The position numbers and the translations under genes were made by a program. This document shows positions 1-30,957 of a DNA stretch of 32,000 bases, one piece after another. Origin of the DNA: Puniceicoccales bacterium (lineage in GTDB: Bacteria; Verrucomicrobiota; Verrucomicrobiia; Opitutales; UBA9783); contig JAIRMU010000010.1 in assembly GCA_031258545.1 (NCBI GenBank), positions 1 through 32,000 on the forward strand, read 5' to 3'. How positions within the stretch are numbered: position 1 is the stretch's first letter; each line of letters begins with the position of its first letter. The notes beneath the pieces are model-generated. The model searched no databases. It saw only the letters and a list, made by a program, of their open reading frames with translations, and was not told where the DNA came from.

Positions 1-110
1 GGTCTTGAGGTCTTGAGGTCTTGAGGTCTTGAGGTCTTGAGGTCTTGAGGTCTTGAGGTCTTGAGGTCTTGAGGTCTTGAGGTCTTGAGGTCTTGAGGTC
101 TTGAGGTCTT
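1..110 (-). repeat. Perfect 8-bp microsatellite: (GGTCTTGA)n on + strand, (TCAAGACC)n on - strand; 13.75 units, cut by the left window edge
   Basis: Direct reading: the string returns to the same phase every 8 nt from 1 to 110 with no mismatch. It ends at ggtctt|cacag. It lies immediately downstream (on the - strand) of the promoter at 123-152. Confidence 0.97.
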
Positions 111-758
111 CACAGTTAAGTTATTATATCCTTCTCCACCTACCTTTGTCAAGGGTTTTTCAAGGTTTTTCGGAGGTGTTTGGAGAGAATTCGGCCCTTC
201 AATGCAAGGGCCCGAGGCATAAACAGACCTTGAAAAGTTCATTCGCCGTCAAATGCAATGCAGTAATTTGTTTTGTACAACATAATTCCCAAGGATTTTA
301 CAAGTACGTAACCGCACATACGGGGTTAATCTTTCATCGCGGTGTAGCAGGAAATATTGGGTGTTAAACCGAGAATCTGGATTTAGGTAAACGACCAACG
401 TATTCCTAAATTTCACCCTCATTTGGTCCCACAAATAACTTGCAAAAATAAAAACTTTAAACCGAAATAAAGCAATCATGCACAACGCTTTACCCAAAGT
501 ACTTTTATTTGGATGCACCAACGTTGGCAAAAGTACTTTGTTCAATCGTTTAAGTCAAAGTCGCATGGCGATTGTGCACGATCAACCCGGTGTAACGCGT
601 GATTTCTTGTCGGCAACCGTGGATGAAAAATTTCAACTTGTGGACAGTGGAGGCATAGGCAGTCCTAACGACTTATTTGCAAATTTGGTTGAAGACCGTG
701 TCAGAGGCATTTTGGAGAAAGCAGAGGTTGTCATTTGGGTTTTGGATGGAAAATGTGG
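111..758. repeat. Left arm of a large inverted duplication: pilin-module promoter, intergenic region, der promoter and der codons 1-93
   Basis: Its reverse complement matches 8594-9540. The der N-terminus is duplicated with 7 of 93 residues different, and the overlapping 98-aa shadow ORFs differ at 9 of 98 residues. Homology ends after AAATGTGG (751-758). Confidence 0.9.
123..152 (-). promoter_or_regulatory. Near-consensus sigma70 promoter firing leftward into the microsatellite (module copy 1)
   Basis: On the - strand: TTGACA (152..147), 18-nt spacer, TATAAT (128..123), then AACTTAACTGTGAAGACC. Preceded by an A-rich stretch (GAAAAACCC). The same module recurs at 9499-9540 and 10793-10840. 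Confidence 0.7.
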
Positions 759-1860
759 ATTGGCCGCCAGAGATTATGAAATTTCTCACACGTTGCGTAG
801 GCTAAATAAACCGATCATTTTGGCAGTTAACAAAATAGATAACGAACGAGATGAGTCCAGTTGGGTTGAATTTTACCATCTGGGTTGGGAAATTGTCATT
901 CCCATTGCCGCCGAGCATGCGATTAATATTACCATTTTAAAAGAAGCCATCATGCATGCGTTACCTTCGGCCAAAGCTCTTGAGAGTACCGTTGATTTTA
1001 GTGCAAAATTTGCCGTTATAGGTCGACCTAACGTGGGAAAGTCTTCCTTGGTTAACGCTTTGCTAAAAGAAGATCGCATGCTTGTGAGCGATGTTGCGGG
1101 AACAACGCGTGACGCGGTTGAATGCCCATTTTCATGGCAATTTCAAACGGGCCAGAAGGAGAATTTTGTTTTGGTGGATACGGCAGGCGTTCGAAAAAAG
1201 ATAATCGATCCCGTAGAGTATTACGCTTACGTAAGAACCGAGAAAGCATTGCAAACGGTGGACTTGTCTCTCATTTTATTAGATCTATTGGAAGGCCCCA
1301 CCGTTATTGATAAAGACCTGGTTCGCCACGTATACGCATTGGGAAAAGCGTGCATATGGGTGGTGAATAAATGGGATATCGCAAGGCAGCAATTGGACGC
1401 AAGTGGTGAAAATGTAGAAAAATTCCGAAATAAATTTTTACAGCAAATAAACAGTTTGTATCCATTTTTCAATACCCCTGTTGCATTCGTTTCAGCCAAA
1501 TCGGGAGAAGGCATAGACGCTTTACTGAGGCAAGTTGCCGCATTACACAAACGCCTTCACGCAACCGTTTCCACCGGTTTGCTGAACCGTTATTTGCAGA
1601 AAATTATCACCCAAACACCGCCTCCTTCATATAACGGAAAACATTTTAAAATTTATTATGCCGTTCAGATGAAATCGGCCCCCTTCACCCTGCGGGTGTT
1701 TTGCAATAAACTACGCTGGCTGCCCAATCATTACCAACGATTTTTAGAAAATTCCCTGCGGCGGCAATACGCATTGGATGGCTGTCCCATTGTGTGGCAA
1801 TGGGTTGAGAAGTCTCCTCATGCCCTGTTAAACGCATCACCATTGAAGCAAGTGGTTTAG
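478..1860 (+). CDS. der: Ribosome-associated GTPase Der/EngA
   Basis: 460 aa with two tandem GTPase domains (G1 GCTNVGKST and GRPNVGKSS; G3 DSGG and DTAG; G4 NKID and NKWD) plus a C-terminal KH-like region. Confidence 0.95.
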   Translation: MHNALPKVLLFGCTNVGKSTLFNRLSQSRMAIVHDQPGVTRDFLSATVDEKFQLVDSGGIGSPNDLFANLVEDRVRGILEKAEVVIWVLDGKCGLAARDYEISHTLRRLNKPIILAVNKIDNERDESSWVEFYHLGWEIVIPIAAEHAINITILKEAIMHALPSAKALESTVDFSAKFAVIGRPNVGKSSLVNALLKEDRMLVSDVAGTTRDAVECPFSWQFQTGQKENFVLVDTAGVRKKIIDPVEYYAYVRTEKALQTVDLSLILLDLLEGPTVIDKDLVRHVYALGKACIWVVNKWDIARQQLDASGENVEKFRNKFLQQINSLYPFFNTPVAFVSAKSGEGIDALLRQVAALHKRLHATVSTGLLNRYLQKIITQTPPPSYNGKHFKIYYAVQMKSAPFTLRVFCNKLRWLPNHYQRFLENSLRRQYALDGCPIVWQWVEKSPHALLNASPLKQVV

Positions 1861-8547: not shown

Positions 8548-8874
8548 CTAGAAGATTGAGACATACGAATGTAAGCTAAATGTGGCTGTCGGGCCACATT
8601 TTCCATCCAAAACCCAAACGACAACCTCTGCTTTCTCCAAAATGCCTCTGATACGGTCTTCAACCAAATTTGCAAATAAGTTGTCGGGACTGCCTATGCC
8701 GCCACTGTCCACAAGTTGAAATTTTTTATCCACAGTCATCGACAAGAAATCACGCGTTACACCGGGTTGATCGTGCACAATCGCCATGCGACTTTGACTT
8801 AAACGATTGAACAAAGTACTTTTGCCAACGTTGGCGCATCCAAATAAAAGTACTTTGGGTAAAGCGTTGTGCAT
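8548..8874 (-). pseudogene. Truncated duplicate of the der 5' end (codons 1-93 plus 15 unrelated codons)
   Basis: MHNALPKVLLFGC(A/T)NVGKST...VLDGKCG matches der with 7 of 93 differences, then diverges and stops. It lacks G4, the second GTPase domain and the KH domain. It lies in the right arm of the inverted duplication. Confidence 0.88.
8578..8601. other. Perfect 9-bp stem, 6-nt loop palindrome at the inner breakpoint of the duplication
   Basis: AAATGTGGC tgtcgg GCCACATTT. The right half is the last 9 nt of the duplicated der sequence; the left half is its inverted copy. There is no T-run on either strand, so it is not called a terminator. Confidence 0.8.
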
Positions 8875-9540
8875 AATTGCTTTATTTCTGTTTAAAGTTT
8901 GTATTTTTGCAAGTTATTTGTGGGACCAAATGAGGGTGAAACTTGGGAACACGTTGGTCGTTTACCTAAATCCAGATTCTCGGTTTAACACCCAATATTT
9001 CCTGCTACACCGTGATAAAAGATTAACCCCGTATGTGCGGTTACGTACTTGTAAAATCCTTGGGAATTATGTTGTACAAAACAAATTACTGAATTACATT
9101 TGATGGCGAATGAACTTTTCAAAATCTGTGAGTATAACATTTCATGGATGATGATAGACTTATAATACCATAAGCCGGCAATGTGTCATAAAGTTCAACC
9201 TTCAACATGAGTCAGTCTACAATCTATAAGTTTTGAAAATCCTCCGAGAAATTATGTATGTACGCGTATATTCAAGAGGACTGCATCCGTTTTACTACCA
9301 CCGACTGGAGTTGATAAAACTGTTTTGAATATCTCTGGGAATGATGCAATACGACGAAAAACGAAATCACATCCGTCTTACCGCATATCAATCTTAACCC
9401 ATAAACCCAGTTTTACCGTAAGACAAACATCCCCTTGGCCATTGCATCGGATAATTGAATTTTCCTTCAAAACCCTCCGCAAATACCATGAAAAACCCTT
9501 GACAGAGGTAGGTAGGGAAGGATAGAATAATTTAACTGTG
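8594..9540. repeat. Right arm of the inverted duplication; carries roughly 300 bp extra relative to the left arm
   Basis: Reverse-complement match to 111-758. The distance from the der ATG to the module -35 box is 624 nt here and 325 nt on the left. The extra DNA lies roughly at 9128-9420. Confidence 0.88.
9499..9528 (+). promoter_or_regulatory. Sigma70-type promoter of pilin-like gene A (module copy 2)
   Basis: TTGACA (9499-9504), 18-nt spacer, TAGAAT (9523-9528), then AATTTAACTGTGAAGACCTCAA. Nearly identical to copy 1. Confidence 0.65.
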
Positions 9541-9614
9541 AAGACCTCAAAGCGTCTGAGCGCTTAGTTGCCAACCTCATTCCGGAGGTCGAAGACCTCG
9601 GTCAACGGTTGGGA
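9538..9614 (+). promoter_or_regulatory. Conserved 5' leader, copy 2: 9-codon GTG mini-ORF, 20-nt invariant box, and a segment complementary to the box that contains the TTG start
   Basis: GTG 9538 to TAG 9567 encodes MKTSKRLSA. The box TTGCCAACCTCATTCCGGAG (9568-9587) is identical in copy 3. CAACGGTTGGGA (9603-9614) contains GGTTGG, complementary to CCAACC in the box, and the TTG start at 9609. An inner hairpin GAGGTC-gaa-GACCTC sits at 9585-9599. Confidence 0.4.
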
Positions 9615-10457
9615 GCCGATCGAGAATCGGAACTAAGTCGAGAGTGGGAAGCCGTCTGTAAATTAAGACTAAGCCAGAAATCGAGACCGATCCAGAGATT
9701 GGCCCTAAATCAACTGTCTGGATCAAGTCGAGACCTGGAGCCAAAACAAAAGTTAAAGTCGGTTCGAGGGCCAGAGCTAAGCCAGGGATTAGGATCGGTC
9801 CGGAGATTTGACCCCAATCGAAGATCCGATCGAGGATTACCTCGAAAATTGGAAGCGAGTCGGGACCTATGGTCGGTTTATGAATCAGAGTCTCCATCCC
9901 CATCCGTAACCCGAAAAGGTTTTACGCTCATCGAAATCGTTGTCACCCTGTGCATCGTGGCCATCCTGACCGCCATTGCCATTCCTGGCTTTAGGAAAGC
10001 CACGGAAGATTTTCGATTGAATTCCACACTCGAAGACACGGTGGACATACTCAAAGCCTGCCGCAATTACTATCTCATCTTTAATGAGTTCCCTCTGGAT
10101 TCATGCGATAGTGTCATACCGAATCGCCTGAGGCTATTTGTACCCCATCGTCTTATTAACACCGCAACGGGCAAATGGAATGCCCTTCCACTAGGCAATA
10201 AAGCCTACAGTTATGACATCGACAATTGGATGGGTAATACCTCCAACAAACAACACAGTATAGGTATATCACTGTGCGGCATCAGACAAAATACTGCCGA
10301 TTGGAATAAGTGTTATAATAAGTTTAAGTCGCGTATAGGAGAGAGGTATATTACACCCTGGTCGGTTAGTTCTTATTACATGATATGCCTTTTACCCGAA
10401 TGTCCTGGATCGACGGATCATAATAGAAATACGACGTGGGAAAATCGATACTATTAG
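9609..10457 (+). CDS. Type IV pilin / pseudopilin-like protein A with a long N-terminal extension; start codon unresolved
   Basis: Prepilin motif RKG|FTLIEIVVTLCIVAILTAIAIPGF (G at 9918-9920, E at +5) followed by a ~178-aa Cys-containing domain ending PECPGST...WENRYY. The frame is open from 9531. The first canonical start is TTG 9609, giving a 104-codon leader. There is no in-frame ATG before the motif. Confidence 0.8.
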   Translation: MGADRESELSREWEAVCKLRLSQKSRPIQRLALNQLSGSSRDLEPKQKLKSVRGPELSQGLGSVRRFDPNRRSDRGLPRKLEASRDLWSVYESESPSPSVTRKGFTLIEIVVTLCIVAILTAIAIPGFRKATEDFRLNSTLEDTVDILKACRNYYLIFNEFPLDSCDSVIPNRLRLFVPHRLINTATGKWNALPLGNKAYSYDIDNWMGNTSNKQHSIGISLCGIRQNTADWNKCYNKFKSRIGERYITPWSVSSYYMICLLPECPGSTDHNRNTTWENRYY

Positions 10458-10792: not shown

Positions 10793-10820
10793 TTGACAAA
10801 GAACAAAAAACGACTATAAT
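10793..10820 (+). promoter_or_regulatory. Sigma70-type promoter of pilin-like gene B (module copy 3)
   Basis: TTGACA (10793-10798), 16-nt spacer, TATAAT (10815-10820), then AACTTAATTGTGAAGAC. Confidence 0.65.
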
Positions 10821-10829
10821 AACTTAATT

Positions 10830-10906
10830 GTGAAGACACCGAGATCTCTGACCGTTTAATTGCCAACCTCATTCCGGAGCTAAAGGACCCCAGGCAACGG
10901 TTGGGA
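10830..10906 (+). promoter_or_regulatory. Conserved 5' leader, copy 3: same architecture and spacing as 9538-9614
   Basis: GTG 10830 to TAA 10859 encodes MKTPRSLTV. The box TTGCCAACCTCATTCCGGAG is at 10860-10879 and CAACGGTTGGGA at 10895-10906, with the TTG start at 10901. Box-to-TTG distance is 41 nt in both copies. Confidence 0.4.
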
Positions 10907-11692
10907 TCAGGTCAAAGGGTAAGATCAGATCGAGGATTGGAGTTAGGTCGAGATCTGAAACCGATCCAAAGGTCGGAACCCAGCCAAAGATCTGATCAAA
11001 GATTACCTCAAAGATTTTGGCAAAACCGGAAGTTGAGACCAACCTGGGGATTGGGATGGTTGAAGTTCTTCGGAGGTTCGGGATTATTTCACGGGGTCGC
11101 CTACACCCTACCGTTTTCGAGTAAATACCTAGAAAGGCAATCTAAGCATCCATCCGCAAGCCGTAACGGATTTACGCTCATCGAAGTTGTTGTCACGCTG
11201 TGCATCGTGGCCATCCTTACCGCCATCGCCATTCCGGGGTTTAAAAAGGCGACCGAAGATTTTCGGCTTAATGCAACGCTAGAAGATACTGTGGATATTA
11301 TGAAGGCTTGCCGCGCTTACTACCTCATCTTTAATGAATGGCCTGCTGACGCAGGTGATAATATAGAAACCAAATTGTGCCCTTTTGTACCTAATCGTTT
11401 GATGAATCCCAGCAAGCGGTGGAATCGTAGGCCATTGAATAGTACAGCCTACAACTATGATTGGGAAAATTTTGTAAGCTATGCAAACACGTTACCTCAT
11501 AGTGTTGGGATATCTCTCATAGGTATTAAATTTGGTACTGCTGTTTGGGATAAATGTTACCTTAAGTTCCAACCTGTGATTGGAGGCAAATACATTATGA
11601 GTCGTAATGATCGCATGTGTTGCCTTATGCCCGAATGCCCTGGTTCGACAAATCCTAACAGTAACACGCTTTGGGAGAATCGATACTATTAA
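10901..11692 (+). CDS. Type IV pilin / pseudopilin-like protein B, paralog of A; start codon unresolved
   Basis: RNG|FTLIEVVVTLCIVAILTAIAIPGF (G at 11168-11170). The first ~55 mature residues are nearly identical to A, the middle is diverged, and the tail PECPGST...WENRYY is shared. The frame is open from 10823. TTG 10901 gives a 90-codon leader with no in-frame ATG. Confidence 0.8.
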   Translation: MGSGQRVRSDRGLELGRDLKPIQRSEPSQRSDQRLPQRFWQNRKLRPTWGLGWLKFFGGSGLFHGVAYTLPFSSKYLERQSKHPSASRNGFTLIEVVVTLCIVAILTAIAIPGFKKATEDFRLNATLEDTVDIMKACRAYYLIFNEWPADAGDNIETKLCPFVPNRLMNPSKRWNRRPLNSTAYNYDWENFVSYANTLPHSVGISLIGIKFGTAVWDKCYLKFQPVIGGKYIMSRNDRMCCLMPECPGSTNPNSNTLWENRYY

Positions 11693-19989: not shown

Positions 19990-21210
19990 TTACAAATTTA
20001 ATGAACTGCTGAACTGCATAACGCTGGATACGATACCTAACGCCAAAATACCAACGAGAAAAAATGCAAACCCCAGCGCGCTGGATGTAATGGCGTGGGT
20101 CAAGAAACGAAATTTTGCATCCAATTCCTCATTATGCAATCGATACACTTCCTTTAAGCTCTCATGCATGTTACCCGTGCTTTCACCCACCGTTAATATA
20201 TCCAAGGCTAAATCGGTAAAAAATGGGATATTTTTAGCTTTAAAAGCCACCGACATGGCCACACCATCGTTAATTTTATTGCGCGCTTCCTGGTACAATT
20301 TCCGCAGACAGACATTGCCAATTACTTTTTCGGTCAAACGCATACCTTCCGTCAAATTCACGCCGCTGCTCAACAAAGTAGACAGCAAATTCGACACCCT
20401 GCAAATTTCCACATACCTGATCAGCGTATTTACGACGGGTAATTTCAGGATAAAACTATCCGTCTTAAATTTTCCACTTGCAGAAAACTTTCGCCAAAAT
20501 CGAATGGCAATATAGCCCACCACTAGGCCCACAATAATAACCGGGAACCCATAAAGCAAACCGTGCGAAAACCCAATTAAAATGCGTGCCGGCAGCGCCA
20601 TTTCTCCGCCCAATGAAGTTAACATACGTTCAATGCGTGGTAACAGAAAAAATAAGAAAAAACCCACCACGATAATGGCAACAATGGAAACGATGGTGGG
20701 ATAAGCCATGCCACTCAGGACCTTTTTTTTCAATTGTTCCCGTTCCGTTAATAAATGAATAATCTCTTTGAAAACAGGCGCCAAATTTCCGGTTACCTCC
20801 GCAGCTTCAATGGGGTAAATAATATCTTCTCCGAAAACATTGGGATAATTTTTGAGCGCATCTCCCAAGCTCTTGCCTTCACTTAAATCTTTCCACAATA
20901 CAACCGCTAATGCTTTCTGATTCTGATCCCGAAGACGCGTTTGCAGAATTTTTAATGTATCGCCAATCGGCAATCCAGCCCCATGCAACTGAAAAATTCT
21001 CTTCAGAAACGGCAGCGCTATTTTGGAATTCAATTTTTTAACATTTTTGGCGGGATCCTTTTCGACCCCTTTCGCAATCAACACCAAATCGGAAGGTTGA
21101 ATCCCCTGACGTACCAACAATTGCAATGCCTGCTTTTTGTTTTTTGCAAAAATGAAACCTTCTTTTTTTCTGCTCTCGGTTTTATATTTAAATTTTAACA
21201 TCGTACCCAT
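19990..21210 (-). CDS. gspF: T2SS/T4P inner-membrane platform protein GspF/PilC family
   Basis: 406 aa with the duplicated T2SSF-domain organisation and hydrophobic segments. Its start overlaps the gspE stop (TAATG). Confidence 0.88.
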   Translation of the reverse strand: MGTMLKFKYKTESRKKEGFIFAKNKKQALQLLVRQGIQPSDLVLIAKGVEKDPAKNVKKLNSKIALPFLKRIFQLHGAGLPIGDTLKILQTRLRDQNQKALAVVLWKDLSEGKSLGDALKNYPNVFGEDIIYPIEAAEVTGNLAPVFKEIIHLLTEREQLKKKVLSGMAYPTIVSIVAIIVVGFFLFFLLPRIERMLTSLGGEMALPARILIGFSHGLLYGFPVIIVGLVVGYIAIRFWRKFSASGKFKTDSFILKLPVVNTLIRYVEICRVSNLLSTLLSSGVNLTEGMRLTEKVIGNVCLRKLYQEARNKINDGVAMSVAFKAKNIPFFTDLALDILTVGESTGNMHESLKEVYRLHNEELDAKFRFLTHAITSSALGFAFFLVGILALGIVSSVMQFSSSLNL

Positions 21211-22919
21211 TATTTAGACGCAGACGCCTCTAAATCGCCCGCAGAAAAATGCAATGCAGCTTCCAAACTCGTGAAACCACATTTTACTTGGTTCCATGCA
21301 GATTGTTGCAATGTGCGCATACCTTCTTTTAAAGCAATTTCCTTAATGTCATTCGCAGACTTATTTTTGATAATCGCTTTATGGATTTCTTCACTGATAT
21401 TTAAAATTTCAAATATGCCGACGCGTCCCTTATATCCTAAATTTCTACACTGATCGCAACCTACGGCTCTTTTTACTTGAGATGCATACTGGATTTCGGA
21501 TGCATGTACACCCAGTTGATTTAGCTGCATACGCAAGGTTTGTTCGGGTAAATTGGCGGGGGTAGAGCAATGCGGGCACAGGCGACGCACCAGACGTTGT
21601 GCAACAATCATTTCCACCGATGAAGTGATCAGAAACGGCTCAATGCCCATATCGACAAGACGTGTCAACCCACCTGCGGCGTCGTTTGTGTGCAGAGAAC
21701 TCAATACTAAATGTCCCGTTAAAGAAGCACGGATTGCAATATCGGCCGTCTCCTTGTCGCGAATTTCACCAATCATGATAACATCCGGATCTTGACGTAA
21801 AATATGCCGCAATGCACTGGCAAAACTGAAACCAATTTCACCGTGTACCTGTGACTGATTAACGCCTTCAATTTCATATTCCACGGGATCTTCCACGGTA
21901 ATTATACGTCGTTCCGGAGTTCTAATCCTACGGACGAAGGCACTGAGCGAAGTCGATTTACCGGAACCCGTAGGTCCTGTCACCAAAATGATTCCATGGG
22001 GCTTACGGATATTGTGATCAATTACTTTTAAATCCTCAACACTCAATCCCAAATCTTCCAAAGTCACGGGTCGACTTCCCTGACTTAAAAGACGTAGGCT
22101 GATACTTTCTCCATACATCGTTGGCAAAGTAGACAAACGAATGTCCAATTCAAACGGCCCCGAAGTAAAACGAATTCTTCCATCTTGAGGACGACGTTTT
22201 TCGGAGATATTTAGACGGGCCATAATTTTCAAACGCGAAATGATGGCCGCTTGAAATTTTACCAAATTTTCTGGCAATTTAATGGAAACTAATTGGCCAT
22301 CAATGCGATATCGTATTTGAATGGAGTTTTTCTGCGGTTCAAAATGAATATCCGTCGCACGATCCGTGACCGCTTTGGCAATAATTTCATTCACAAAACG
22401 AATAATGGCAGCATCTTCGTCTTCTTCTACCTCTACCTCATCTTCTGCACGTAAACTTCCTTCTAGATCACTGTCCGATAAGCTATCTGAGCCTACGCCA
22501 AAATGTTGAATAATGGTATTGGCGACATTTTGGGCAACCGTTAAATGCCAAATAGCCTTACGTCCACAAACCACTTCGATCCAACGGATCATGGACACAT
22601 CGGGAGGCCAAACGGTAATTAAGTGTAAACTGTCTGCATTTAAATCATTCTGAATTTCAATGGGTAAACATTGATATTCATGGATTAAACGCAGGGGTAT
22701 TTGGGTGGTTGCATCGCTGGCTATCTTAAAATTTTCTAAAAAATCGAGACCGTTTTCTTCCGCAATCAACTTACCTACAACGTTTGTTGAACGATCCAAC
22801 ATTTCTGCCAAATAATCCAAACGTTCGTGCCTTAACAGCTTTTGTAAAGTGAGCTTTTGAGACTCATCTAACCGTTCTAGCAACGATGGAATTTTAACCC
22901 TATGCTTTTGTAAATTCAT
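21210..22919 (-). CDS. gspE: T2SS/T4P assembly ATPase GspE/PilB family
   Basis: 569 aa. T2SSE N-terminal domain, acidic linker, Walker A GPTGSGKST, Asp/His boxes, tetracysteine CPHC...CDQC. Confidence 0.95.
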   Translation of the reverse strand: MNLQKHRVKIPSLLERLDESQKLTLQKLLRHERLDYLAEMLDRSTNVVGKLIAEENGLDFLENFKIASDATTQIPLRLIHEYQCLPIEIQNDLNADSLHLITVWPPDVSMIRWIEVVCGRKAIWHLTVAQNVANTIIQHFGVGSDSLSDSDLEGSLRAEDEVEVEEDEDAAIIRFVNEIIAKAVTDRATDIHFEPQKNSIQIRYRIDGQLVSIKLPENLVKFQAAIISRLKIMARLNISEKRRPQDGRIRFTSGPFELDIRLSTLPTMYGESISLRLLSQGSRPVTLEDLGLSVEDLKVIDHNIRKPHGIILVTGPTGSGKSTSLSAFVRRIRTPERRIITVEDPVEYEIEGVNQSQVHGEIGFSFASALRHILRQDPDVIMIGEIRDKETADIAIRASLTGHLVLSSLHTNDAAGGLTRLVDMGIEPFLITSSVEMIVAQRLVRRLCPHCSTPANLPEQTLRMQLNQLGVHASEIQYASQVKRAVGCDQCRNLGYKGRVGIFEILNISEEIHKAIIKNKSANDIKEIALKEGMRTLQQSAWNQVKCGFTSLEAALHFSAGDLEASASK

Positions 22920-22945
22920 GCAAAATGTACCCTCAATTTTGATGT

Positions 22946-23500
22946 TTATCCTTCGCCATTGAAATCACTGCCTTCATTGTCATACATACTCGCATCATCC
23001 ATCAGATCGCCACTCATTCCCCCCATACCCATAGCAGAGGTTTTCGTTTCAGTTTTTGCTACTTCTCTTTGTACGCGGACTAACCCTTCCGGTAATTCCA
23101 ACACCAACAGTGCCTTACTTTCATCGTAGGCGTAAAATTGTACGTGCAAATTGGGATCATTGTCTTCACGTCGAGATGATATCCAAAGTCCTTTTTGCGT
23201 ATTAACATCCGTCAGGCCAAAATGATAAATATTGTCTGCTATCTTCATGACACTGTGAAATTGATAATCGGCTGTCGTCAACGTCGATAAAGTAGATACT
23301 GTACTTCCACCTTGATTAAAATAAGCAGGAATAAAAGGAGAATTTTTTATAAGTTCTTCGCATGCTTTGCTTGGGGCCAAATGCTGCTCGCCGCCATCTT
23401 CTTCCGCATTTAACCAGCCACACACCCACAACATCAGGACAACGCATATTTGAAACTGCAACATGTATCGCCTAAAATATGTCTCGATGCTTAAATTCAT
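22946..23500 (-). CDS. Exported protein of unknown function between the secretin and ATPase genes; possible GspC/PilP-like secretin-binding component
   Basis: 184 aa. N-terminal hydrophobic signal/anchor ICVVLMLWVCGWLNA, predicted beta-rich middle, acidic Gly/Met/Asp tail. Assignment rests on position only. Confidence 0.4.
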   Translation of the reverse strand: MNLSIETYFRRYMLQFQICVVLMLWVCGWLNAEEDGGEQHLAPSKACEELIKNSPFIPAYFNQGGSTVSTLSTLTTADYQFHSVMKIADNIYHFGLTDVNTQKGLWISSRREDNDPNLHVQFYAYDESKALLVLELPEGLVRVQREVAKTETKTSAMGMGGMSGDLMDDASMYDNEGSDFNGEG

Positions 23501-23512
23501 TTTCTAGTTCAA

Positions 23513-25819
23513 CTACCGATGTTTTGTCGCACCATGCTGAAATTTTGCACGTTTTGTATGCAGTATAGGGCTTGTTTTTGTGCGATGTGATTTACGCACC
23601 CTAGGTTCCGCGTGGCTTTTCTTCGTTGATGGCTTATTTTTGGCATGCAAGCGATTATCCGATTGCACGGATGCATTACGACGATTCGTATTGGATTTAA
23701 CGGCTTGATGAGTGGGCTGAGATTGCACATGGGTCTGTTCTTTGCGGCGTGCTTTACGTTTTGTTGGTTCAAAACTACTGTTTTGAGTTAATTTTCCGTT
23801 TTCAAGGTACGTATTAATATCCGATTTCGTGGATGCATCCAAACGATCTATATATCTTTTCGTATCCCGCGTTGCACTGTCGACATCCGAAAGAACGTAA
23901 GGACGTATGAAAATAATCAATTCTTTTATAACCTCCTCTTTTACTTTTCCAGAAAATAGAGCATCTCCCAACAAAGGTAGATCGCCCAATATAAACATGC
24001 GCTTTTTACGATCCATTACTTCTCTTTGTTTTAACCCTCCAAGAATGAGAACATCCCCCGACTGGATGGACACAAACGATTTAGCTTCTCTGCGCATGAT
24101 GTGTGGCATAGAAAGTTTGTTGGCACCAATGGTCGTCGATTCTTGGGAAAAATTGTCCACTTTTTGCGTAATCTCCAATTGTACAACACCTTGGGTTCCG
24201 ATGAGCGGTTTAACCGTCAACTCAATACCCGCATCCACTTTTTCAATGGTGCTGTTGGAAATATCGGCCGCAGTGGGACTGGTGCTGGAATCACTTTTTG
24301 TCTGTACACTGCTCAAATAGGGACGCGTTTCAGAAATTTTAATCAAAGACTCCCTGGCATGGGTTGTTAACAAAGTAGGCGCCGATAAAATGGACACATT
24401 GGAATTTGTTTTTGCCGTATTAATGACGGTATCTAACGCAAAATTCCTAAAAGTTAACGAAGAAATTTTGAATGAATTATTGCCGCCATTTGACGATAAT
24501 CCAGGCATTGAAACGTCTTTTAACGTATTTACTGATCCCTTATGGTTGTAACCGAACGATTCTAAACCACTCGCTTGTCCTTTGTTCAAAATAACCTCAG
24601 CGATGATAACTTCAATGCGGACTTGCGGCAATACAACGTCCAACTGTTCTATTAATTGCTGAATCTGACGAATATCGGTCGGTGTACCGTATACCACAAC
24701 CGCGTTCAATCTTTCATCACACTCTATGCTTAACTGTTTACTAAATTGAGCTACCTGATCATTCTTTATGGCATTGGGTCCGGGTTGTTCCAGGGGCAAG
24801 TCTGTTTTTTCTTGCCGATTTTGCTGCTGCACTAACCTTTTGACCAATGCCGTAAGCTCTTTACTGGAACCATGCTGAATTCTGAATACGTGGCTACGTG
24901 CCAAAGCACCCACATTAACATCCAAACGATTCATAAAGCTTTGTATGATGTCTTCATTGCCCATGGGTGTAACCACAATGAGTTGGTTTGTTCTGGTGTC
25001 GGCCTCAAAGCTGGTATTCCCCAGCAAATAACGTTTCAAGGCCCCTTTTTGCAAGTCTTCAAATTTCTGTTTCAATTCCTTTGCACTCACATTCTTGACG
25101 TCAAAAAACATGATCTTTTCCTGCACGTCTCCAACTTTATCAATCTTTGCAAAAATAGTTCCCAATCGTTGCAAATTACTTAAAGAATCTGTAATCAACA
25201 GTGCATTTGCTTTATCTAGAGTAACCACCGACGATACCACGGGCGTTAAAAATGAATGTACCATGCGTGCCGCTTCACGCGCCGTCAAATTGTTAAATGG
25301 AAACAAACAGCTGCATATCTCTTGACTGGCAGCATGCGATTGCAGTTGTTGAACATCAATGAGTTCCGGAGAACTACTCTTGGCTCTATTCACCGGAACC
25401 ACCCTTAAATACTTTTCTCCCATGGGCGTTACGGCAATCCCATTGGCGTTTAACACACTCTTAATGCTCGCAACCGCTTCTTGTTTCGTCAAGGGATGTG
25501 CAATATTCAAATTAACGGAAACTTTGGGTAAATTATTTGCAACGATTAGGATGCGCCCCGTTAGTTTTTCCAACAAAGCCAACACCTGCTGCACCGATTC
25601 TTCCACCAACGTGAGTGAATCAATCTTGCTATCGTCCACTAAAGTAGCCAGAGACGTTTCCGAAGTATCCTGTTGTTCCCCTACGGCATCCTTAGCATTT
25701 GCAGACAATTTATCATCTTCAGCGACAAGGGCACCTACGTATAGCATGCCTATTAAAAAAGTGCCGACGACAAACGGTTTTAACAGCTTCATCGTACGAT
25801 CATTGATTATTCTTTTCAT
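23513..25819 (-). CDS. gspD: Outer-membrane secretin GspD/PilQ family with an atypical basic C-terminal tail
   Basis: 768 aa. Signal-like N-terminus, N-domain repeats, secretin core (ILSAPTLLT..., VKPLIG...VQLEI, ILGDLPLLGDALF...ELIIFIRPYVL). The last 85 residues contain about 24 K/R and 8 H against 4 acidic residues. Confidence 0.9.
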   Translation of the reverse strand: MKRIINDRTMKLLKPFVVGTFLIGMLYVGALVAEDDKLSANAKDAVGEQQDTSETSLATLVDDSKIDSLTLVEESVQQVLALLEKLTGRILIVANNLPKVSVNLNIAHPLTKQEAVASIKSVLNANGIAVTPMGEKYLRVVPVNRAKSSSPELIDVQQLQSHAASQEICSCLFPFNNLTAREAARMVHSFLTPVVSSVVTLDKANALLITDSLSNLQRLGTIFAKIDKVGDVQEKIMFFDVKNVSAKELKQKFEDLQKGALKRYLLGNTSFEADTRTNQLIVVTPMGNEDIIQSFMNRLDVNVGALARSHVFRIQHGSSKELTALVKRLVQQQNRQEKTDLPLEQPGPNAIKNDQVAQFSKQLSIECDERLNAVVVYGTPTDIRQIQQLIEQLDVVLPQVRIEVIIAEVILNKGQASGLESFGYNHKGSVNTLKDVSMPGLSSNGGNNSFKISSLTFRNFALDTVINTAKTNSNVSILSAPTLLTTHARESLIKISETRPYLSSVQTKSDSSTSPTAADISNSTIEKVDAGIELTVKPLIGTQGVVQLEITQKVDNFSQESTTIGANKLSMPHIMRREAKSFVSIQSGDVLILGGLKQREVMDRKKRMFILGDLPLLGDALFSGKVKEEVIKELIIFIRPYVLSDVDSATRDTKRYIDRLDASTKSDINTYLENGKLTQNSSFEPTKRKARRKEQTHVQSQPTHQAVKSNTNRRNASVQSDNRLHAKNKPSTKKSHAEPRVRKSHRTKTSPILHTKRAKFQHGATKHR

Positions 25820-26364
25820 TGTTGTAAATCCTTTAATTGTAGTGCAATTAAATCGAAGTTAACCTCCAATAAAGTTGGGTTAAAGTTGTTGGCCCGTATT
25901 TTTACTTTTTCTAAACCAATATAAGGCTTCATCGCATAAATTGCGTTTTCAAAATCTACCAAATTTTTTAAACTCGCATTTTCACAACGCAATTGCAGCG
26001 TGTGCGCATTAAAAATATCACCCTGCCGCGTTTTAGGAGAAGTCATGGAGTACGTTAATTGATTATCCCGTGCAACCGACTCCACCTGACCTGCCAATTG
26101 GGTTCCCGAGTAAGTTTTTTCCGGATCAATCCAGGTTAAAATTTTTGTCAAATTACTTTTAACGATGGCTTCATTTTTTATCCAAAAATTAAAATGCTTT
26201 ATCTTTGATTGTACCAGCTGCCAGTCTTGCTTGAGCCTTTTAGCCCTGTGCAAACACGTTGTAAGCCAAATAAAACCGGCAAACCAAATAAAAATTAAGC
26301 AAAGCAACTTTTCTCGGCTATTGAGTTTGGTTAGAAAACCTAAAAACTTTTCAACGATCTTCAT
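25816..26364 (-). CDS. Bitopic membrane protein, GspM/PilO-like by position and topology
   Basis: 182 aa with a single N-terminal TM segment (LLCLIFIWFAGFIWLTTCL). 4-nt overlaps with both neighbours. Confidence 0.4.
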   Translation of the reverse strand: MKIVEKFLGFLTKLNSREKLLCLIFIWFAGFIWLTTCLHRAKRLKQDWQLVQSKIKHFNFWIKNEAIVKSNLTKILTWIDPEKTYSGTQLAGQVESVARDNQLTYSMTSPKTRQGDIFNAHTLQLRCENASLKNLVDFENAIYAMKPYIGLEKVKIRANNFNPTLLEVNFDLIALQLKDLQQ

Positions 26365-27521
26365 GATGGATTTTCCAAAGCCAGAAATGACGTCTTATTT
26401 TTTTCCTTAAAATCGCAAACTAAGGAAAACTTTGTACCCTGATAGGTGGTTGTCATGTTCTCTATTGTTACCGATTCAAAATGGCCACTTTTGTCCAATT
26501 GCTGACGATAAGTTTCGGCTGCAATCGCTGTTTCGGCGATGGCTTCTATGACAACATTGTGCAAATTATCGACCATGGAAGACAAAAAATAAATGGATTT
26601 GGGCCTGAAGTCATTTAAGATGCTTAGCAATTCAAAGGGACGAATTTCTTGTTCTACGGTGCTTTGAATTTTGCGTACCAGAAAGTCTTTGCTCTCAATG
26701 GATAAAGCCTTCGGCTGCAGGGAATTTTTAGTTCTCTCTTTGTACAACAAACATGCTTTTGCCCCCATTAAACAAATTTCAAATGAGAAAAGTAGAATCA
26801 AAAACAAGAACGCCATACGAATGCCTGCCTGGGAAACCTTGTCCACTTGCCGTTGCATTTTTAGAGATTTTATGAGTGCTTTGTCACGAATATCTGCATT
26901 CCAAATAACATCTGCGCGCAGGGTCACGTCACGCGTTTTTACGGAGCCATCCAGTGACTTACATTCCGCAACCCATTTAACATCCCCGGAATACCCAACA
27001 TTGGAACTGATAATTTTAATGCGTGTCAGTTGATCACCAACCTCCACCTTGGATGCAGATAAGCATTGCTGGATGTGCGTAAAACTAGCCTCTTCGGTTT
27101 TATAAAAACCAAAAATCTTTTTATCCACCAATACGGAAGCAAATTTATCTCCCGTAAAAATTTGTCCCCCCTTCTGCGCGAGCAAAAAGCCTAATGCGAA
27201 ATAAGGAACCATATGTAATCCATCCGGTAAATCGCCCGCAACACCCAGTATACGTTCTTTTAGACCAGCATACCATAACAAAACATACCCATCTTTTGCC
27301 GTTTCTCGTTCGACAAACCCCCACAATAATTGGTCCATAGGTAAAGGAGAAATTTCAGCAATTGTACTGTGTACCCACTCATTTAATTGTTTTGGAGGTA
27401 ATCGTTTTGGCCTTTCATCCGTCTGATAAAAAAACAGAGAATCAGGTAATAGCGCAATTTCCCCCACTCTATCCACGTTGTGTACGGAATCATTGGTGTT
27501 TTCTGATTTCTCCACTTTCAT
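26361..27521 (-). CDS. Bitopic membrane protein, GspL-like (or fused PilM/N-like) by position and topology
   Basis: 386 aa. ~235-aa cytoplasmic part, a central TM segment (MAFLFLILLFSFEICLMGA), ~125-aa C-terminal part. No motif-level match seen. Confidence 0.4.
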   Translation of the reverse strand: MKVEKSENTNDSVHNVDRVGEIALLPDSLFFYQTDERPKRLPPKQLNEWVHSTIAEISPLPMDQLLWGFVERETAKDGYVLLWYAGLKERILGVAGDLPDGLHMVPYFALGFLLAQKGGQIFTGDKFASVLVDKKIFGFYKTEEASFTHIQQCLSASKVEVGDQLTRIKIISSNVGYSGDVKWVAECKSLDGSVKTRDVTLRADVIWNADIRDKALIKSLKMQRQVDKVSQAGIRMAFLFLILLFSFEICLMGAKACLLYKERTKNSLQPKALSIESKDFLVRKIQSTVEQEIRPFELLSILNDFRPKSIYFLSSMVDNLHNVVIEAIAETAIAAETYRQQLDKSGHFESVTIENMTTTYQGTKFSLVCDFKEKNKTSFLALENPS

Positions 27522-27529
27522 AAATTATA

Positions 27530-28741
27530 TCAGCTTTCCCATTTCCCTTCCTGCAACGTAACTAACTCCAATGACAACACACCCCTGTTTTGAACAGGTT
27601 CGCTTTTACTATAACTTTCCTCCTTCTTGTTTGTCAAGGATTTTACTTGCTGTTTACTCTCTTTTTCTCGCATGAGCGCCTTATTAACTTTGAAAATTGC
27701 CGTAAGCGTGTAATTCACATCCGCACGTAATACTTCCACCTCCACTTTAAGTATACGTGCGGAAACGCCCATAAATTTTTCCGCAACATCATGGAGTGTA
27801 TTGTCTTTTTTATTCTCTGAAGTATGCTGTCCCAGTTTTAAATTTCCATGGCCACGTTTATTTATTTCCGCAATACTTCTGTAATATTTACCCCGACCTT
27901 GCGATTGTTCGGGTTTTCCCATAAAATTTTCGACCTGTTCCAAATCAATTGAAAAAATTTTACCTAAACATATCCAAACATCTTTGGGAGCCGTATTTAT
28001 GTTGACGGGAAGAGATCCCAACAAGGTCGTGCATTCCCTAAGGCGCTTTAACGTATCATCACAAAAATTACCCTTGCTGAAAAACCTCTTCTGAAAAGAT
28101 TCCATCTCCGCAAGCTGTTGGTAACTATTTAGGCAGGTCGGTAAAAACACACCTGGAGATTTATTGCCCTGGGGATTTTCGGATTCGTTTTTATTGTCGG
28201 TAACCGTCTTGTTATCGGTTGCATTTTCATTTTGCGACGCCGCCTTAGGCAAGGTTCGATTTTCCACCAAAGTCACCTCCGTTGGTCTACGACGTAACCA
28301 CTGCAAATAGGACTGCGTCAACGCCTGACTATCTAAATAATCACCGAACAGATTAAACAAATTTAACAACAATCTTTTATCGGGATTGTTGAGAGGAATT
28401 TTCCCCGATTCATCTTCAATACGCACTTTTAATTGGATACCTTCTGGAATTTCTATCTTAGATGTAGATATTACTTTATTCCATCCCTGCAGCGGACCAT
28501 ATAAGTCTCCATGAATTTCCAAAATTTCTTCCAATCCGGCCCACACAACATTGAGCCCATTATAAGCGTAATGCTTCAAATCTGCATTCCCCAACAATTG
28601 TGCATGTACCTTGATGTCTTGCGTTAAATTTTTCAGGAAAACAACCACCAGAAATGACAATAGCATCAACAGGCCCAAGACCATCAACAAAATAGCCCCA
28701 GACATCGGGTGTCTCAACTGTGAACGGCATCTACAAGACAT
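27530..28741 (-). CDS. gspK: Minor pseudopilin GspK-like
   Basis: 403 aa. N-terminal hydrophobic helix SGAILLMVLGLLMLLSF without E+5, DESGKIPLN and VNINTAPKDV motifs typical of GspK. The start may be the internal M at 28705. Confidence 0.7.
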   Translation of the reverse strand: MSCRCRSQLRHPMSGAILLMVLGLLMLLSFLVVVFLKNLTQDIKVHAQLLGNADLKHYAYNGLNVVWAGLEEILEIHGDLYGPLQGWNKVISTSKIEIPEGIQLKVRIEDESGKIPLNNPDKRLLLNLFNLFGDYLDSQALTQSYLQWLRRRPTEVTLVENRTLPKAASQNENATDNKTVTDNKNESENPQGNKSPGVFLPTCLNSYQQLAEMESFQKRFFSKGNFCDDTLKRLRECTTLLGSLPVNINTAPKDVWICLGKIFSIDLEQVENFMGKPEQSQGRGKYYRSIAEINKRGHGNLKLGQHTSENKKDNTLHDVAEKFMGVSARILKVEVEVLRADVNYTLTAIFKVNKALMREKESKQQVKSLTNKKEESYSKSEPVQNRGVLSLELVTLQEGKWES

Positions 28742-29510
28742 GATTGTTGTGGTCCTTGGGGGCAGTTTTTGCGTTGGGTTGTGCCGAAGGCGGTTCCTGC
28801 ACGTGAAACATTTTTGCGTCTAGCAAAGCAATAAAACGTTGCTCTTCGCAATTATCTTTACTAAAAATTATTCGTATCCCATCGGGATATTGCCCCAAAG
28901 ACTTGTTTTGATTTTCGTAGGATTTTCTCAAAGTATCCGTCCATCCTTTGAAAGACCAAGTCCCCTTTTCTAAATCCAAATACCCACATTGCAACTCCTT
29001 TACACAGTCGCTCAAAATACACCGACAAGTGACGACCGTTGAGTCTTCTTCAACGCCTACCCCAAATCGCTTTTGCTTAAGGAGCCGCTCCTGCCATAAT
29101 AATATCAATTGGTGTTCCACATGACATAAGGCAATGGAACAGGGATTCCAATTCGACGATAAAAATAAAAAAGGCTGCCGTAGTTGCTTAGTTAGGCCAA
29201 ATGTAACATCCCGACTGATTCCTTCAGATTTTATTTTCCCCGCCATAAATAACTGGCCTTTGCACCCATCTTTACCGATTAAAGATGTTATCTCATTGAG
29301 GTGTGTGGATAAAAAATGCGTACAGTAATCTACGTGTTCTAAGAATGCTTTTCTGTCTCCATTTTCTTCCCAAACCTGGACAAAAGTTACAAAAAGTGTC
29401 ATGACCGTCGACAAAATTAATCCACCTAACCCAAGTGCTAAAATAACTTCCAATAAAGTAAAGCCGTTACACCGTTGATACGCTTCAATTCTCTTGCAAT
29501 GCTTCTTCAT
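28731..29510 (-). CDS. gspJ: Minor pseudopilin, GspJ-like by order and size
   Basis: Prepilin motif NGFTLLEVILALGLGGLIL. 259 aa. Follows the gspI-like gene. Confidence 0.6.
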   Translation of the reverse strand: MKKHCKRIEAYQRCNGFTLLEVILALGLGGLILSTVMTLFVTFVQVWEENGDRKAFLEHVDYCTHFLSTHLNEITSLIGKDGCKGQLFMAGKIKSEGISRDVTFGLTKQLRQPFLFLSSNWNPCSIALCHVEHQLILLWQERLLKQKRFGVGVEEDSTVVTCRCILSDCVKELQCGYLDLEKGTWSFKGWTDTLRKSYENQNKSLGQYPDGIRIIFSKDNCEEQRFIALLDAKMFHVQEPPSAQPNAKTAPKDHNNHVL

Positions 29511-29937
29511 TTTCGTCGAAATTTTTTTCGTGCAATTTTCTTAGTTGTAACCGCTCAGATTGAGTGATCCATTCTCTACGACGTACCCAAAAACTATATT
29601 TGCAATCTTCATTTTGGATTTTTACTTCGACATTGTATAAACCCAAATAAGGGGTTAATTGTACGTTCCCTTGCCATTGTATTGTATCCGCACAATCGGG
29701 TAAGTAAAAAGTGTGGTTGCTTGAAATTTGCCCCCGTTTTATTTTGCCTAATGCATAGCGAATTGTATCCAATGTTAAGCACTTTGAATCACCTTGTGTG
29801 AGAGCACGTTTACAAATGAGACCGTTCACAAAACTCTGCGATAGCATCAATACCGAAACCGCAAACAATGCCAAAGCAATCACCACTTCAATCAATGTAA
29901 AAGCGCTTCGCTTGCAAGCAGCACTAGACTTCAACAC
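29485..29937 (-). CDS. gspI: Minor pseudopilin, GspI-like by order and size
   Basis: Prepilin motif RSAFTLIEVVIALALFAV. 150 aa. Confidence 0.6.
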   Translation of the reverse strand: MLKSSAACKRSAFTLIEVVIALALFAVSVLMLSQSFVNGLICKRALTQGDSKCLTLDTIRYALGKIKRGQISSNHTFYLPDCADTIQWQGNVQLTPYLGLYNVEVKIQNEDCKYSFWVRRREWITQSERLQLRKLHEKNFDENEEALQEN

Positions 29938-30463
29938 CGATAAGTCCTCCCGTCAACGCATCCACACGAAAAAACTCTGCAATGCCTTTCCATGTAATTT
30001 TAACATAGGCATTCTCAAAATATCCATACTGCGAAACCTTTAGGCAATTCAACTGCGTGTGCATTAACCGAGGCTGACCATCGCTTGCGTATTCTCCTTG
30101 ATAAAACTCAAATGCTACCTGTTTGGCGTCCAATTCTTTGGGGAACTTCGTCAATTCTACAATGGATGCATCGGTATCCTCGATTTGAAAACCTTCATTT
30201 GTACAGGTGAGAAGTAAATTTTCGTGCCGCTGCGAAGCCAACAGACGCATGCTTTGTATCCTGCGATTCAAGAGCCATGTTGGATTGTGTTTATAGCTGG
30301 AAAAAGCGGATTGGACTTGATTAAAATGCGATATGGATAAACTGGATATTAACCCAAATAAAGCCAACACCAATAGCAATTCTATGAGCGTAAATCCTTG
30401 CCTTTTTGCATTATCCATGCTTCCAATGACTGAAGTCTTTAATCTTCCGAGGCATTCTTCCAA
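29924..30463 (-). CDS. gspH: Minor pseudopilin, GspH-like; likely start at 30418
   Basis: Prepilin motif MDNAKRQGFTLIELLLVLALFGLI. Using the internal ATG at 30418 removes the overlap with gspG. Confidence 0.6.
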   Translation of the reverse strand: MEECLGRLKTSVIGSMDNAKRQGFTLIELLLVLALFGLISSLSISHFNQVQSAFSSYKHNPTWLLNRRIQSMRLLASQRHENLLLTCTNEGFQIEDTDASIVELTKFPKELDAKQVAFEFYQGEYASDGQPRLMHTQLNCLKVSQYGYFENAYVKITWKGIAEFFRVDALTGGLIGVEV

Positions 30464-30903
30464 TTTCCGATGTCATCCCCATCGCCGCTTTGGCCTCCGG
30501 GTCCCATAGACCAGACGTCGTAACTATTTTTATTCTTAGAACCCGGGTAACGGTATTGGTAAGGATTTCCCCACGGATCAACCAAGTCATCCTTATTCTT
30601 AACATAAGGCCCTTGCCAACGTCCCGCCTTCCCCGAAGGGGCTTTCAGCAAAGCGTCCAAGCCTTCTTCCGTAGATGGATAATTGCCAATGTGCGCTCGA
30701 TAAGCCATCAAAGGAACATCGATCACTTTGGATACAAACAAACCGGCAACCTTCTTCTGTCCGCCCCCAAAAATAGATTCGGAATTAACGACAATCAAAC
30801 CTAGAATCATCCCCATTAAGGCGAGGGCAATTAAAATTTCAATTAAAGAAAATCCAGACCTTTTATCCCTATTAATTTCTACCATATTCCCATTATGCAG
30901 CAT
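30439..30903 (-). CDS. gspG: Major pseudopilin GspG
   Basis: RSGFSLIEILIALALMGMILGLIV plus the GspG hallmark DPWGNPYQYRYPG...YDVWSMGPGGQSGDGDDIGNW. Confidence 0.9.
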   Translation of the reverse strand: MLHNGNMVEINRDKRSGFSLIEILIALALMGMILGLIVVNSESIFGGGQKKVAGLFVSKVIDVPLMAYRAHIGNYPSTEEGLDALLKAPSGKAGRWQGPYVKNKDDLVDPWGNPYQYRYPGSKNKNSYDVWSMGPGGQSGDGDDIGNWKNASED

Positions 30904-30957
30904 GTTGTTACCAGGTTCAATCTTTTTTTATTGGATTGCAATTGCGAGAAAAATATT

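Follow-up and report, generated by a model that had tools for sequence, protein, structure and literature searches.

A perfect octanucleotide repeat at the 5' end of a predicted prepilin-type gene transcript in an uncultured Puniceicoccales bacterium: a probable opa-like contingency locus

The window analysed here is a 32,000-nt stretch of DNA (contig JAIRMU010000010.1, positions 1 to 32,000) from the metagenome-assembled genome (MAG) of a Puniceicoccales bacterium, and it begins with a perfect octanucleotide microsatellite at positions 1-110, read on the - strand as AAGACC followed by (TCAAGACC)x13 and located with Tandem Repeats Finder and by exact unit matches. Tandem Repeats Finder reported a period of 8, 13.8 copies, 100% matches, 0 indels and a score of 220 for this interval, with GGTCTTGA as the unit on the + strand. 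Exact copies of TCAAGACC number 13, all on the - strand at 1-104, and the partial unit AAGACC occupies 105-110; read from the minus strand, the start of the window is GTG AAGACC (TCAAGACC)x13. Outside the tract there were 0 further exact copies of TCAAGACC in the window, the chance expectation being about one exact match per 64 kb. At 8 nt the unit length is not a multiple of three. All three sense frames of the tract are without a stop codon, and TGA is present in each frame of the + strand. The tract RNA is also predicted to be unusually unstructured, with a minimum free energy of -5.8 kcal/mol against a shuffle mean of -16.7 kcal/mol (z = +3.1). Because the tract reaches window base 1, which is probably the end of the contig, 13.75 units is only a lower bound set by the assembly and not a measured allele. 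The tract is a genuine microsatellite of the hypermutable type.

Immediately before the tract, at 123-152 on the - strand, lies a sigma-70-type promoter matching the consensus at 12/12 positions: TTGACA (152-147), an 18-nt spacer and TATAAT (128-123). A GTG at 111-113 (- strand), identified from the sequence and the family alignment as a candidate 5'-proximal start codon, lies 9 nt past the -10 box and 6 nt before the tract units, within the core GTGAAGAC, which is invariant in 5/5 aligned promoter-adjacent copies of the family from three genomes. From this GTG the frame VKT(SRPQDLKT)n runs for 37 codons without a stop to the window edge. Shine-Dalgarno (SD)-like motifs are rare upstream of genes in this organism, so the absence of one before the tract GTG carries little weight. 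These results bear out most of what the original prediction had claimed here, namely 13.75 error-free units, a tract translatable in every frame, a consensus promoter just before it and a GTG 9 nt after the -10 box in frame with at least 37 stop-free codons; its placing of the tract start 17 nt past the -10 box needs correction, as the periodic run begins at 12 nt and the first full unit at 18 nt.

The promoter is part of a larger conserved cassette. Its upstream part (153-245, - strand) aligns with 9405-9498 and with a locus from another MAG (L203), and it contains A-tracts immediately 5' of the -35 box as well as a GGCCCTT..AAGGGCC inverted repeat. Promoter sites of at least 11/12 number only four in the whole 32-kb window, and three of these belong to paralogous leaders and are homologous to one another (152-123; 9499-9528, 11/12; 10793-10820, 12/12). 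The tract promoter together with its spacer is conserved in another MAG (L203, L205). The spacer itself, (A/G)AGGTAGGT(A/G)G(A/G)GAAGG, is kept across paralogs and MAGs (window 129-146 and 9505-9522; L203 2893-2909; L205 1155-1172), and it may be a candidate binding site for a regulator or may reflect nothing more than recent common ancestry of the cassette.

Two of these leaders are related by an inverted segmental duplication. Arm 1 (223-769) comprises the intergenic region and the first 292 nt of an intact der gene (engA; 478-1860, + strand), and its 547 nt are 95% complementary to arm 2 (8583-9129), which was recognised by complementarity and Der domains and contains a truncated der copy (open reading frame [ORF] 8548-8874, - strand, 108 aa). 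A second homology block pairs 101-189 with 9462-9550 (89 nt, 83% complementary), so that overall window 101-769 is duplicated in inverted form at 8583-9550; between the two blocks a 332-nt stretch (9130-9461) stands in place of 33 nt (190-222). Arm 2 sets a copy of the tract's promoter cassette before paralog 1, and because of this duplication the tract and paralog 1 are driven by one and the same promoter-GTG cassette, a third copy of which serves paralog 3 (10901-11692).

Both paralogs encode prepilin-type proteins on the + strand. The ORF of paralog 1 (9609-10457, 282 aa) is 100% identical to NCBI MDR0647173.1 from a Puniceicoccales bacterium MAG (Verrucomicrobiota), has the G codon of its G|FTLIE motif at 9918-9920, and lies behind the promoter TTGACA-N18-TAGAAT (9499-9528, + strand, 11/12 match). 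Paralog 3 (10901-11692, of which MDR0647174.1 is a version with a shorter start) has its G codon at 11168-11170 and lies behind TTGACA-N16-TATAAT (10793-10820, + strand, 12/12 match). The prepilin motif of the paralogs reads GFTLIEIVVTLCIVAILTAIAIPGF, a cleavage/methylation site of the G|F-x-x-x-E type followed by a hydrophobic helix, and both proteins score above the cut-offs of PF07963 and TIGR02532, the latter also found in P0004 and P0069. No named equivalog (GspG, GspH, PilA, ComGC and others) could be assigned, with scores of 17-33 bits against cut-offs of 44-400 bits, and since the scores lie so far under the cut-offs the 'GspH family' label given by the NCBI annotation pipeline PGAP is only nominal. 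At least nine paralogs of the G|FTLIE protein are present in the source MAG, and all true homologues of the family came from Puniceicoccales MAGs and Joint Genome Institute (JGI) metagenomes; judged from these sequences, the prepilin-type family is multigene and specific to Puniceicoccales. In an alignment of the family proteins (A1), about 60 nearly invariant N-terminal residues are followed by a variable middle and a C-terminal (C)LLPECPGST...WENRYY, an architecture of conserved ends and variable middle that is reminiscent of antigenically variable pilin families.

At the position that corresponds to the tract, both paralogs carry an unexpanded site: GTG AAG ACC TCA AAG CGT CTG AGC GCT TAG in paralog 1 (9538-9567, + strand) and GTG AAG ACA CCG AGA TCT CTG ACC GTT TAA in paralog 3 (10830-10859, + strand). 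These 9-codon ORFs end in TAG or TAA just 5' of a conserved block, TTGCCAACCTCATTCCGGAG...CAACGGTTGGGA, and this block in turn ends at the TTG that PGAP takes as the start (MGADR...). For the unexpanded leaders, coupling through an upstream open reading frame (uORF) or a conserved RNA hairpin was considered but found no support, as the paralog 1 leader gave z = -1.5 and that of paralog 3 adopted a different fold with z = +0.3.

The original prediction had also read the paralog leaders as decayed versions of the octamer, and this did not survive analysis. The leaders are periodic at 6, 12 and 18 nt and not at 8 or 16 nt (autocorrelation z of 5.2 and 4.5 at lag 18, and of -1.0 and 1.1 at lag 8), and their Smith-Waterman similarity to an idealised tract falls within the range of shuffled sequences. 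Aligned in register they form an array of hexapeptides instead (e.g., LEPKQK / LKSVRG / PELSQG), and the only genuine counterpart of the tract in them is the 13-nt proto-repeat of paralog 1, GAAGACCTCAAAG, at the corresponding site. Such degenerate in-register 18-nt arrays, approximately L-(K/E)-P-x-Q-(R/K), precede G|FTLIE over 90-225 codons and are open in the pilin frame (P ~0.002); they were seen at window 9609-9917 and 10901-11167, at 1-537 of L122, and in P0070, P0071, P0048 and P0055. Some leaders are hybrids, in which an internal '...PS(V/A)xRNGF', the end of one leader, is joined to 'H(R/Q)DT(K/E)xSDRLI...', the translated start of another. These hybrids (L122 1-560, P0013, P0019, P0051, P0053, P0055, P0056, P0058 and P0059) are all open in frame, and they look like recombination products of tandem paralogs.

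Comparison with relatives places the tract at a recurrent site. The site GTGAAGACC|TCAAGCG is common to ten loci of the family, and its occupancy is bimodal. At 4/10 loci (paralogs 1 and 3, L203 and L205) it is unexpanded, with 1-2.7 units (i.e., three or fewer), and at the other six it holds at least 11.75 perfect units. The expanded tracts are at least 94 nt long with 99-100% matches, and they fall into four unit types of 7 or 8 nt, none divisible by three and all free of stops on the sense strand. They comprise the window copy (TCAAGACC, at least 13.75 units), P0057/P0069 from the source MAG (an SRPQDLKT-encoding tract of 13.5 units), L001 from another MAG (TCAAGACC, at least 11.75 units), L204 (ACCAAGAT, at least 14.75 units), L123 (CAAGACC, 18.4 units) and L125 (TCAAGAC, 15.1 units). 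The tract lies at a site of expansion conserved in the family, at the very start of what is probably a prepilin-type gene transcript.

The gene to the left of the window would, by analogy with these relatives, be a pilin of this family. The original prediction would have been contradicted by a tract that runs into a terminator or into unrelated DNA; in L001, L123, L125 and L204 a pilin-like ORF comes after the tract. L001 starts inside (TCAAGACC)n and reaches G|FTLVE 105 nt later, while L123 starts with AACTGTGAAGACC, continues with (CAAGACC)x18.4 and then enters the pilin. In the source MAG itself, P0069 (MDR0647087.1, identical to JGI P0057) lies on a 104-kb contig and presents a complete ORF from GTG through 13.5 units into the pilin, M/VKT(SRPQDLKT)4SRPQASKRLIITGRLKTPVPGRASKSPSIPRNG|FTLIE, which JGI and NCBI PGAP both start at the GTG; MDR0647087.1 may be the gene to the left of the window.

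Two of these loci also show how quickly the repeat unit changes. L001 (1-2320) and L204 (1-2262) are syntenic, each with a pilin, an Exo_endo_phos gene and a CTP_transf gene, and represent two close relatives. Their neighbouring protein is 94% identical, whereas the pilins are only 58% identical and the octamer is TCAAGACC in one and ACCAAGAT in the other, which indicates that turnover or replacement of the pilin cassette is very fast. Because the two loci are syntenic, a long perfect tract has persisted at one locus despite turnover of its unit, a retention that a transient neutral expansion would hardly explain.

A metagenome scan for (TCAAGACC)x3 hit over 120 unrelated contigs (L002-L121), most of them of high GC content and originating in soil, rhizosphere or marine samples; the flanks of the window locus were absent from all of them. 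In these contigs a unit family of (Y)CAAGACC / CCCAAGAC / TCAGGACC forms microsatellites of 24-106 nt. One AT-rich locus was represented by four contigs with tract lengths of at least 42 nt (L003), 42 nt (L113), 50 nt (L055) and 58 nt (L121), and these lengths are a direct copy-number polymorphism of the unit in another organism. An association of the unrelated tracts with gene starts was examined and set aside as uninformative, since long spurious ORFs are common in GC-rich DNA.

In L001, L123 and L125, two of the three frames stop 4-13 nt past the tract and the remaining one is the pilin frame. In L204 the pilin frame is likewise open from the tract, and the other frames stop at 12 nt and only at 118 nt. 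Two loci, P0057/P0069 and L123, show both ends of the tract, and in each of them the GTG shares the frame of the pilin (chance 1/9); in L123 the ORF is continuous for 307 codons from the GTG into the pilin. The stretch of L001 from the tract to G|F lacks an in-frame ATG, GTG or TTG, and none occurs in any frame of the tract itself; because there is no in-frame start after the tract, the L001 pilin is translatable only from upstream of it. In every locus examined the pilin frame is open from the GTG/-10 region to the pilin, over 66-179 codons upstream of G|F. In paralog 1 the open stretch reaches back to the -10 box and spans 129 codons (P = 0.0015, dinucleotide shuffles), in paralog 3 it spans 115 codons (P = 0.0065), and in L205 103 codons. 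The full series of open-leader probabilities from dinucleotide shuffles was 0.0015, 0.0065, 0.0015, 0.023, 0.045 and 0.15. The other frames of the leaders contain 2-14 stops. An artefact of composition was rejected as the source of the open leaders, given these stops in the other two frames and the rarity of open shuffles. Because the pilin frame is kept open while the other frames hold stops, the leaders are coding, and they are under selection to keep the pilin frame open.

Taken together, these observations make it reasonably probable, in our view, that the tract is an opa-like translational contingency locus in which the repeat encodes part of a cleavable prepilin leader. Transcription would start from the consensus promoter a few bases 5' of the GTG, and translation would begin at this nearly leaderless GTG and turn the repeat into MKT(SRPQDLKT)n, with which a long prepilin leader ending at G|FTLIE would begin. 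Because the unit is 8 nt long and, in the relatives, two frames close behind the tract, only every third repeat number would join the GTG to the pilin. Slippage by one unit (8 nt) would shift the reading frame by 2, either into a terminating frame or into the pilin frame, and slipped-strand mispairing at replication would in this way switch the pilin-like gene reversibly between ON and OFF. The prepilin-type class of the product would agree with such control of a protein exposed at the surface or to a host or phage. With a junction of the L001 type (…TCAAG|GCG) the gene would be ON at full units of n mod 3 = 2, and with that of P0057 (…TCAA|GCN) at n mod 3 = 1, the P0057 tract having n = 13. 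Prepilin peptidase would then remove the repeat-encoded peptide with the leader, and since the repeat peptide would leave with the leader, the mature protein would be unchanged by repeat number.

Several observations weigh against this proposed switch. Ribosomes would have to initiate at a GTG with just some 3-4 nt of predicted transcript ahead of it. Paralogs 1 and 3 have intact long pilin-frame ORFs even though their GTG, being out of frame, gives just the 9-codon ORF. The repeat number of L123, one of the two loci in which GTG and pilin are seen in frame, may be a product of assembly, its 130 nt being longer than k = 119. The short (~6-30 aa) basic leader typical of prepilins is not what these genes show, a short-leader remnant being found in one subfamily only, and to our knowledge the processing of prepilin leaders of 60-130 residues is not known. 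In that subfamily (L123, L125, L204, L203 and L205) a canonical short leader has its own TTG 12-13 codons before G|F, and because of this TTG the frame fusion may be dispensable for expression there. The contig breaks at family loci, finally, could also arise from the identity of paralogs (L202 vs L203).

The proximal TTG would also fit a different role of the repeat, in which the tract would lie in a 5' leader or uORF and tune, without fusion of frames, a pilin whose own start codon is located farther downstream. The repeat could then act through the length or processing of the 5' untranslated region (UTR), through ribosomes travelling from the GTG (uORF overlap, occlusion or coupling), or in an attenuation-like manner. 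Besides the short basic leader of the five loci named above, L/M-K/R-Y/C-S-K/R-V-G-A-L-x-R-x-G|F, this account is favoured by the 9-codon GTG uORF of paralogs 1 and 3, by L203, in which the GTG opens a 62-codon out-of-frame ORF that overlaps the pilin start, and by the precedents of hmw (PMC2651432) and of GCAGA repeats in a leader peptide (PMC3894217). Attenuation by a terminator was rejected, as no terminator-like site was found after the tract or uORF in the window, L001 or L123, or on the sense strand of the paralog leaders, and the leader hairpin of paralog 1 is insignificant and absent from paralog 3. A pure UTR model, moreover, leaves the open pilin frame back to the tract or GTG unexplained, L001 has no in-frame start between tract and pilin, and P0057 and L123 are fused in frame; regulation without fusion is, on this balance, unlikely. 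We regard as less likely still a neutral origin, by which a slippage-prone GAAGACC-TCAAG proto-repeat expands occasionally with no selected role and the window copy is perhaps a decaying or silent paralog. The four unexpanded loci would fit such an origin, as would the short microsatellites that the (Y)CAAGACC octamer family makes in many unrelated soil and marine contigs and the recombinant and truncated members of the family (e.g., L122 and P0010), but six independent tracts of at least 94 nt at the same site, 99-100% matching, non-triplet and stop-free, are not what it would predict, and neither are a long tract kept at one locus in two relatives despite complete turnover of its unit and the conservation downstream of both the frame-closing stops and the open pilin frame.

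It is very improbable that the tract is an assembly artefact, that is, a low-complexity k-mer loop added at the contig end where no real tract exists. The tract does touch base 1, and sister MAG contigs, which are named MEGAHIT k119, also end inside such tracts, one of them with exactly k-1 = 118 periodic bases; window base 1 is probably a contig end of the same kind. However, L001, which comes from an independent MAG and sample, has TCAAGACC next to specific flanking sequence, a 13.5-unit tract lies within a complete ORF on the 104-kb contig of the source MAG, and the units differ among loci while the flanks stay homologous. Assembly therefore affects the length of the tract alone and not its existence. 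Family loci in the sister assemblies lie mostly at contig ends, with the 5' leader towards the end; contig-end position was tried as a sign of tract-length heterogeneity and discarded as unreliable, because L202 and L203 break at identical 5' regions of paralogs.

Elsewhere in the window, a cluster resembling those of type II secretion and type IV pili was identified from Pfam matches at 19990-31434 (- strand). It contains homologues of GspF, GspE and the secretin as well as three pseudopilins with ordinary short leaders. The ORF at 26361-27521 has a weak PilN-like match that falls under the Pfam cut-off, the ORFs at 22946-23500, 25816-26364 and 27530-28741 have no Pfam match, and a prepilin peptidase was not identified within the window. 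This cluster is likely the assembly machinery of the pilin-like family. The fourth promoter match of at least 11/12, TTGACA-N18-TATAGT at 27608-27637 (- strand), lies inside the secretion-cluster ORF 27530-28741 and upstream of ORF 26361-27521, and a motif, TTTGTCAAGG (repeat family D5), is common to the area of 27630-27655 and the promoter region of the tract. An Rfam search of the window returned tRNA-Thr only.

Contingency loci based on simple sequence repeats (SSRs) are textbook knowledge for a small number of pathogens adapted to a host (Neisseria, Haemophilus, Campylobacter, Helicobacter and Mycoplasma), and the closest parallel to the switch proposed here is the opa multigene family of Neisseria, with CTCTT pentamer repeats in the region that encodes the signal peptide. 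As in opa, there is a multigene family with a promoter for each copy, with conserved ends, variable middles and signs of recombination, and a non-triplet SSR stands right after the start, here a candidate GTG, in an N-terminal region that would be cleaved, where it would set the frame and leave the mature protein alone. The unit is 7-8 nt here and 5 in opa; the protein is of the prepilin type, with a class III signal, and not an outer-membrane beta-barrel with a Sec signal; the GTG lies a few nucleotides from the predicted 5' end of the mRNA; and the organism is an uncultured Verrucomicrobium in which we infer switching. In Haemophilus influenzae hmw1A and hmw2A, 13-38 copies of 7-, 8- or 9-nt units lie between the promoter and the adhesin gene, and unit length and sequence vary at one locus between strains (PMC2651432), comparable to the alternation of 7- and 8-nt units in the present family. 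The hmw repeats, however, act by grading transcription or mRNA processing from a position 70-210 nt before the start codon (PMC2651432), whereas the tract described here follows the candidate start codon and is continuous with the ORF. In Streptococcus gallolyticus pil1, an SSR in a short leader ORF alters its frame and length and so gives heterogeneous piliation (PMC3894217). The SSR there is likewise in a leader ORF upstream of a pilus gene, but pil1 needs a stem-loop terminator that ribosomes destabilise (PMC3894217), of which no like site was found here after the tract or uORF, and its pili are sortase-dependent and not type IV-like. With type IV pilins and the pseudopilins of type II secretion the family shares the G|FTLIE motif, the hydrophobic N-terminal helix and a nearby secretin/ATPase/platform cluster. 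It differs from them in apparent leaders of 60-130 residues in place of the usual 6-30, in a globular domain that matches no named family above cut-off, and in the number of paralogs, at least nine per genome.

When the full-text literature was searched for SSR phase variation in Verrucomicrobia, no such report came up. If the proposed reading is correct, the same bet-hedging design that operates in those pathogens acts on a type IV pilin-like multigene family in an uncultured Puniceicoccales lineage, and this would point to strong fluctuating selection on its surface filaments, for example by phage, protists or a host. The translated prepilin leaders of 60-130 residues, partly encoded by the repeat, would be unusual for class III signal peptides. 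On the practical side, short-read assemblies are systematically broken by these tracts and by the 5' cassette that the copies have in common, and the genes come out of gene callers too short or too long; the pilin-like family is therefore under-annotated in MAGs. More tentatively, and as a possibility that we would not put ahead of its alternatives, the arrangement may extend to an opa-like 'phasome' of a non-pathogenic, uncultured Verrucomicrobium, in which a shared cassette of consensus promoter, nearly leaderless GTG and expandable 7-8-nt SSR would switch the nine or more pilin-like paralogs independently and vary a surface filament combinatorially, with the repeat serving as a disposable long leader. 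Were this so, the turnover of units with persistence of the tract would imply selection for mutability itself.

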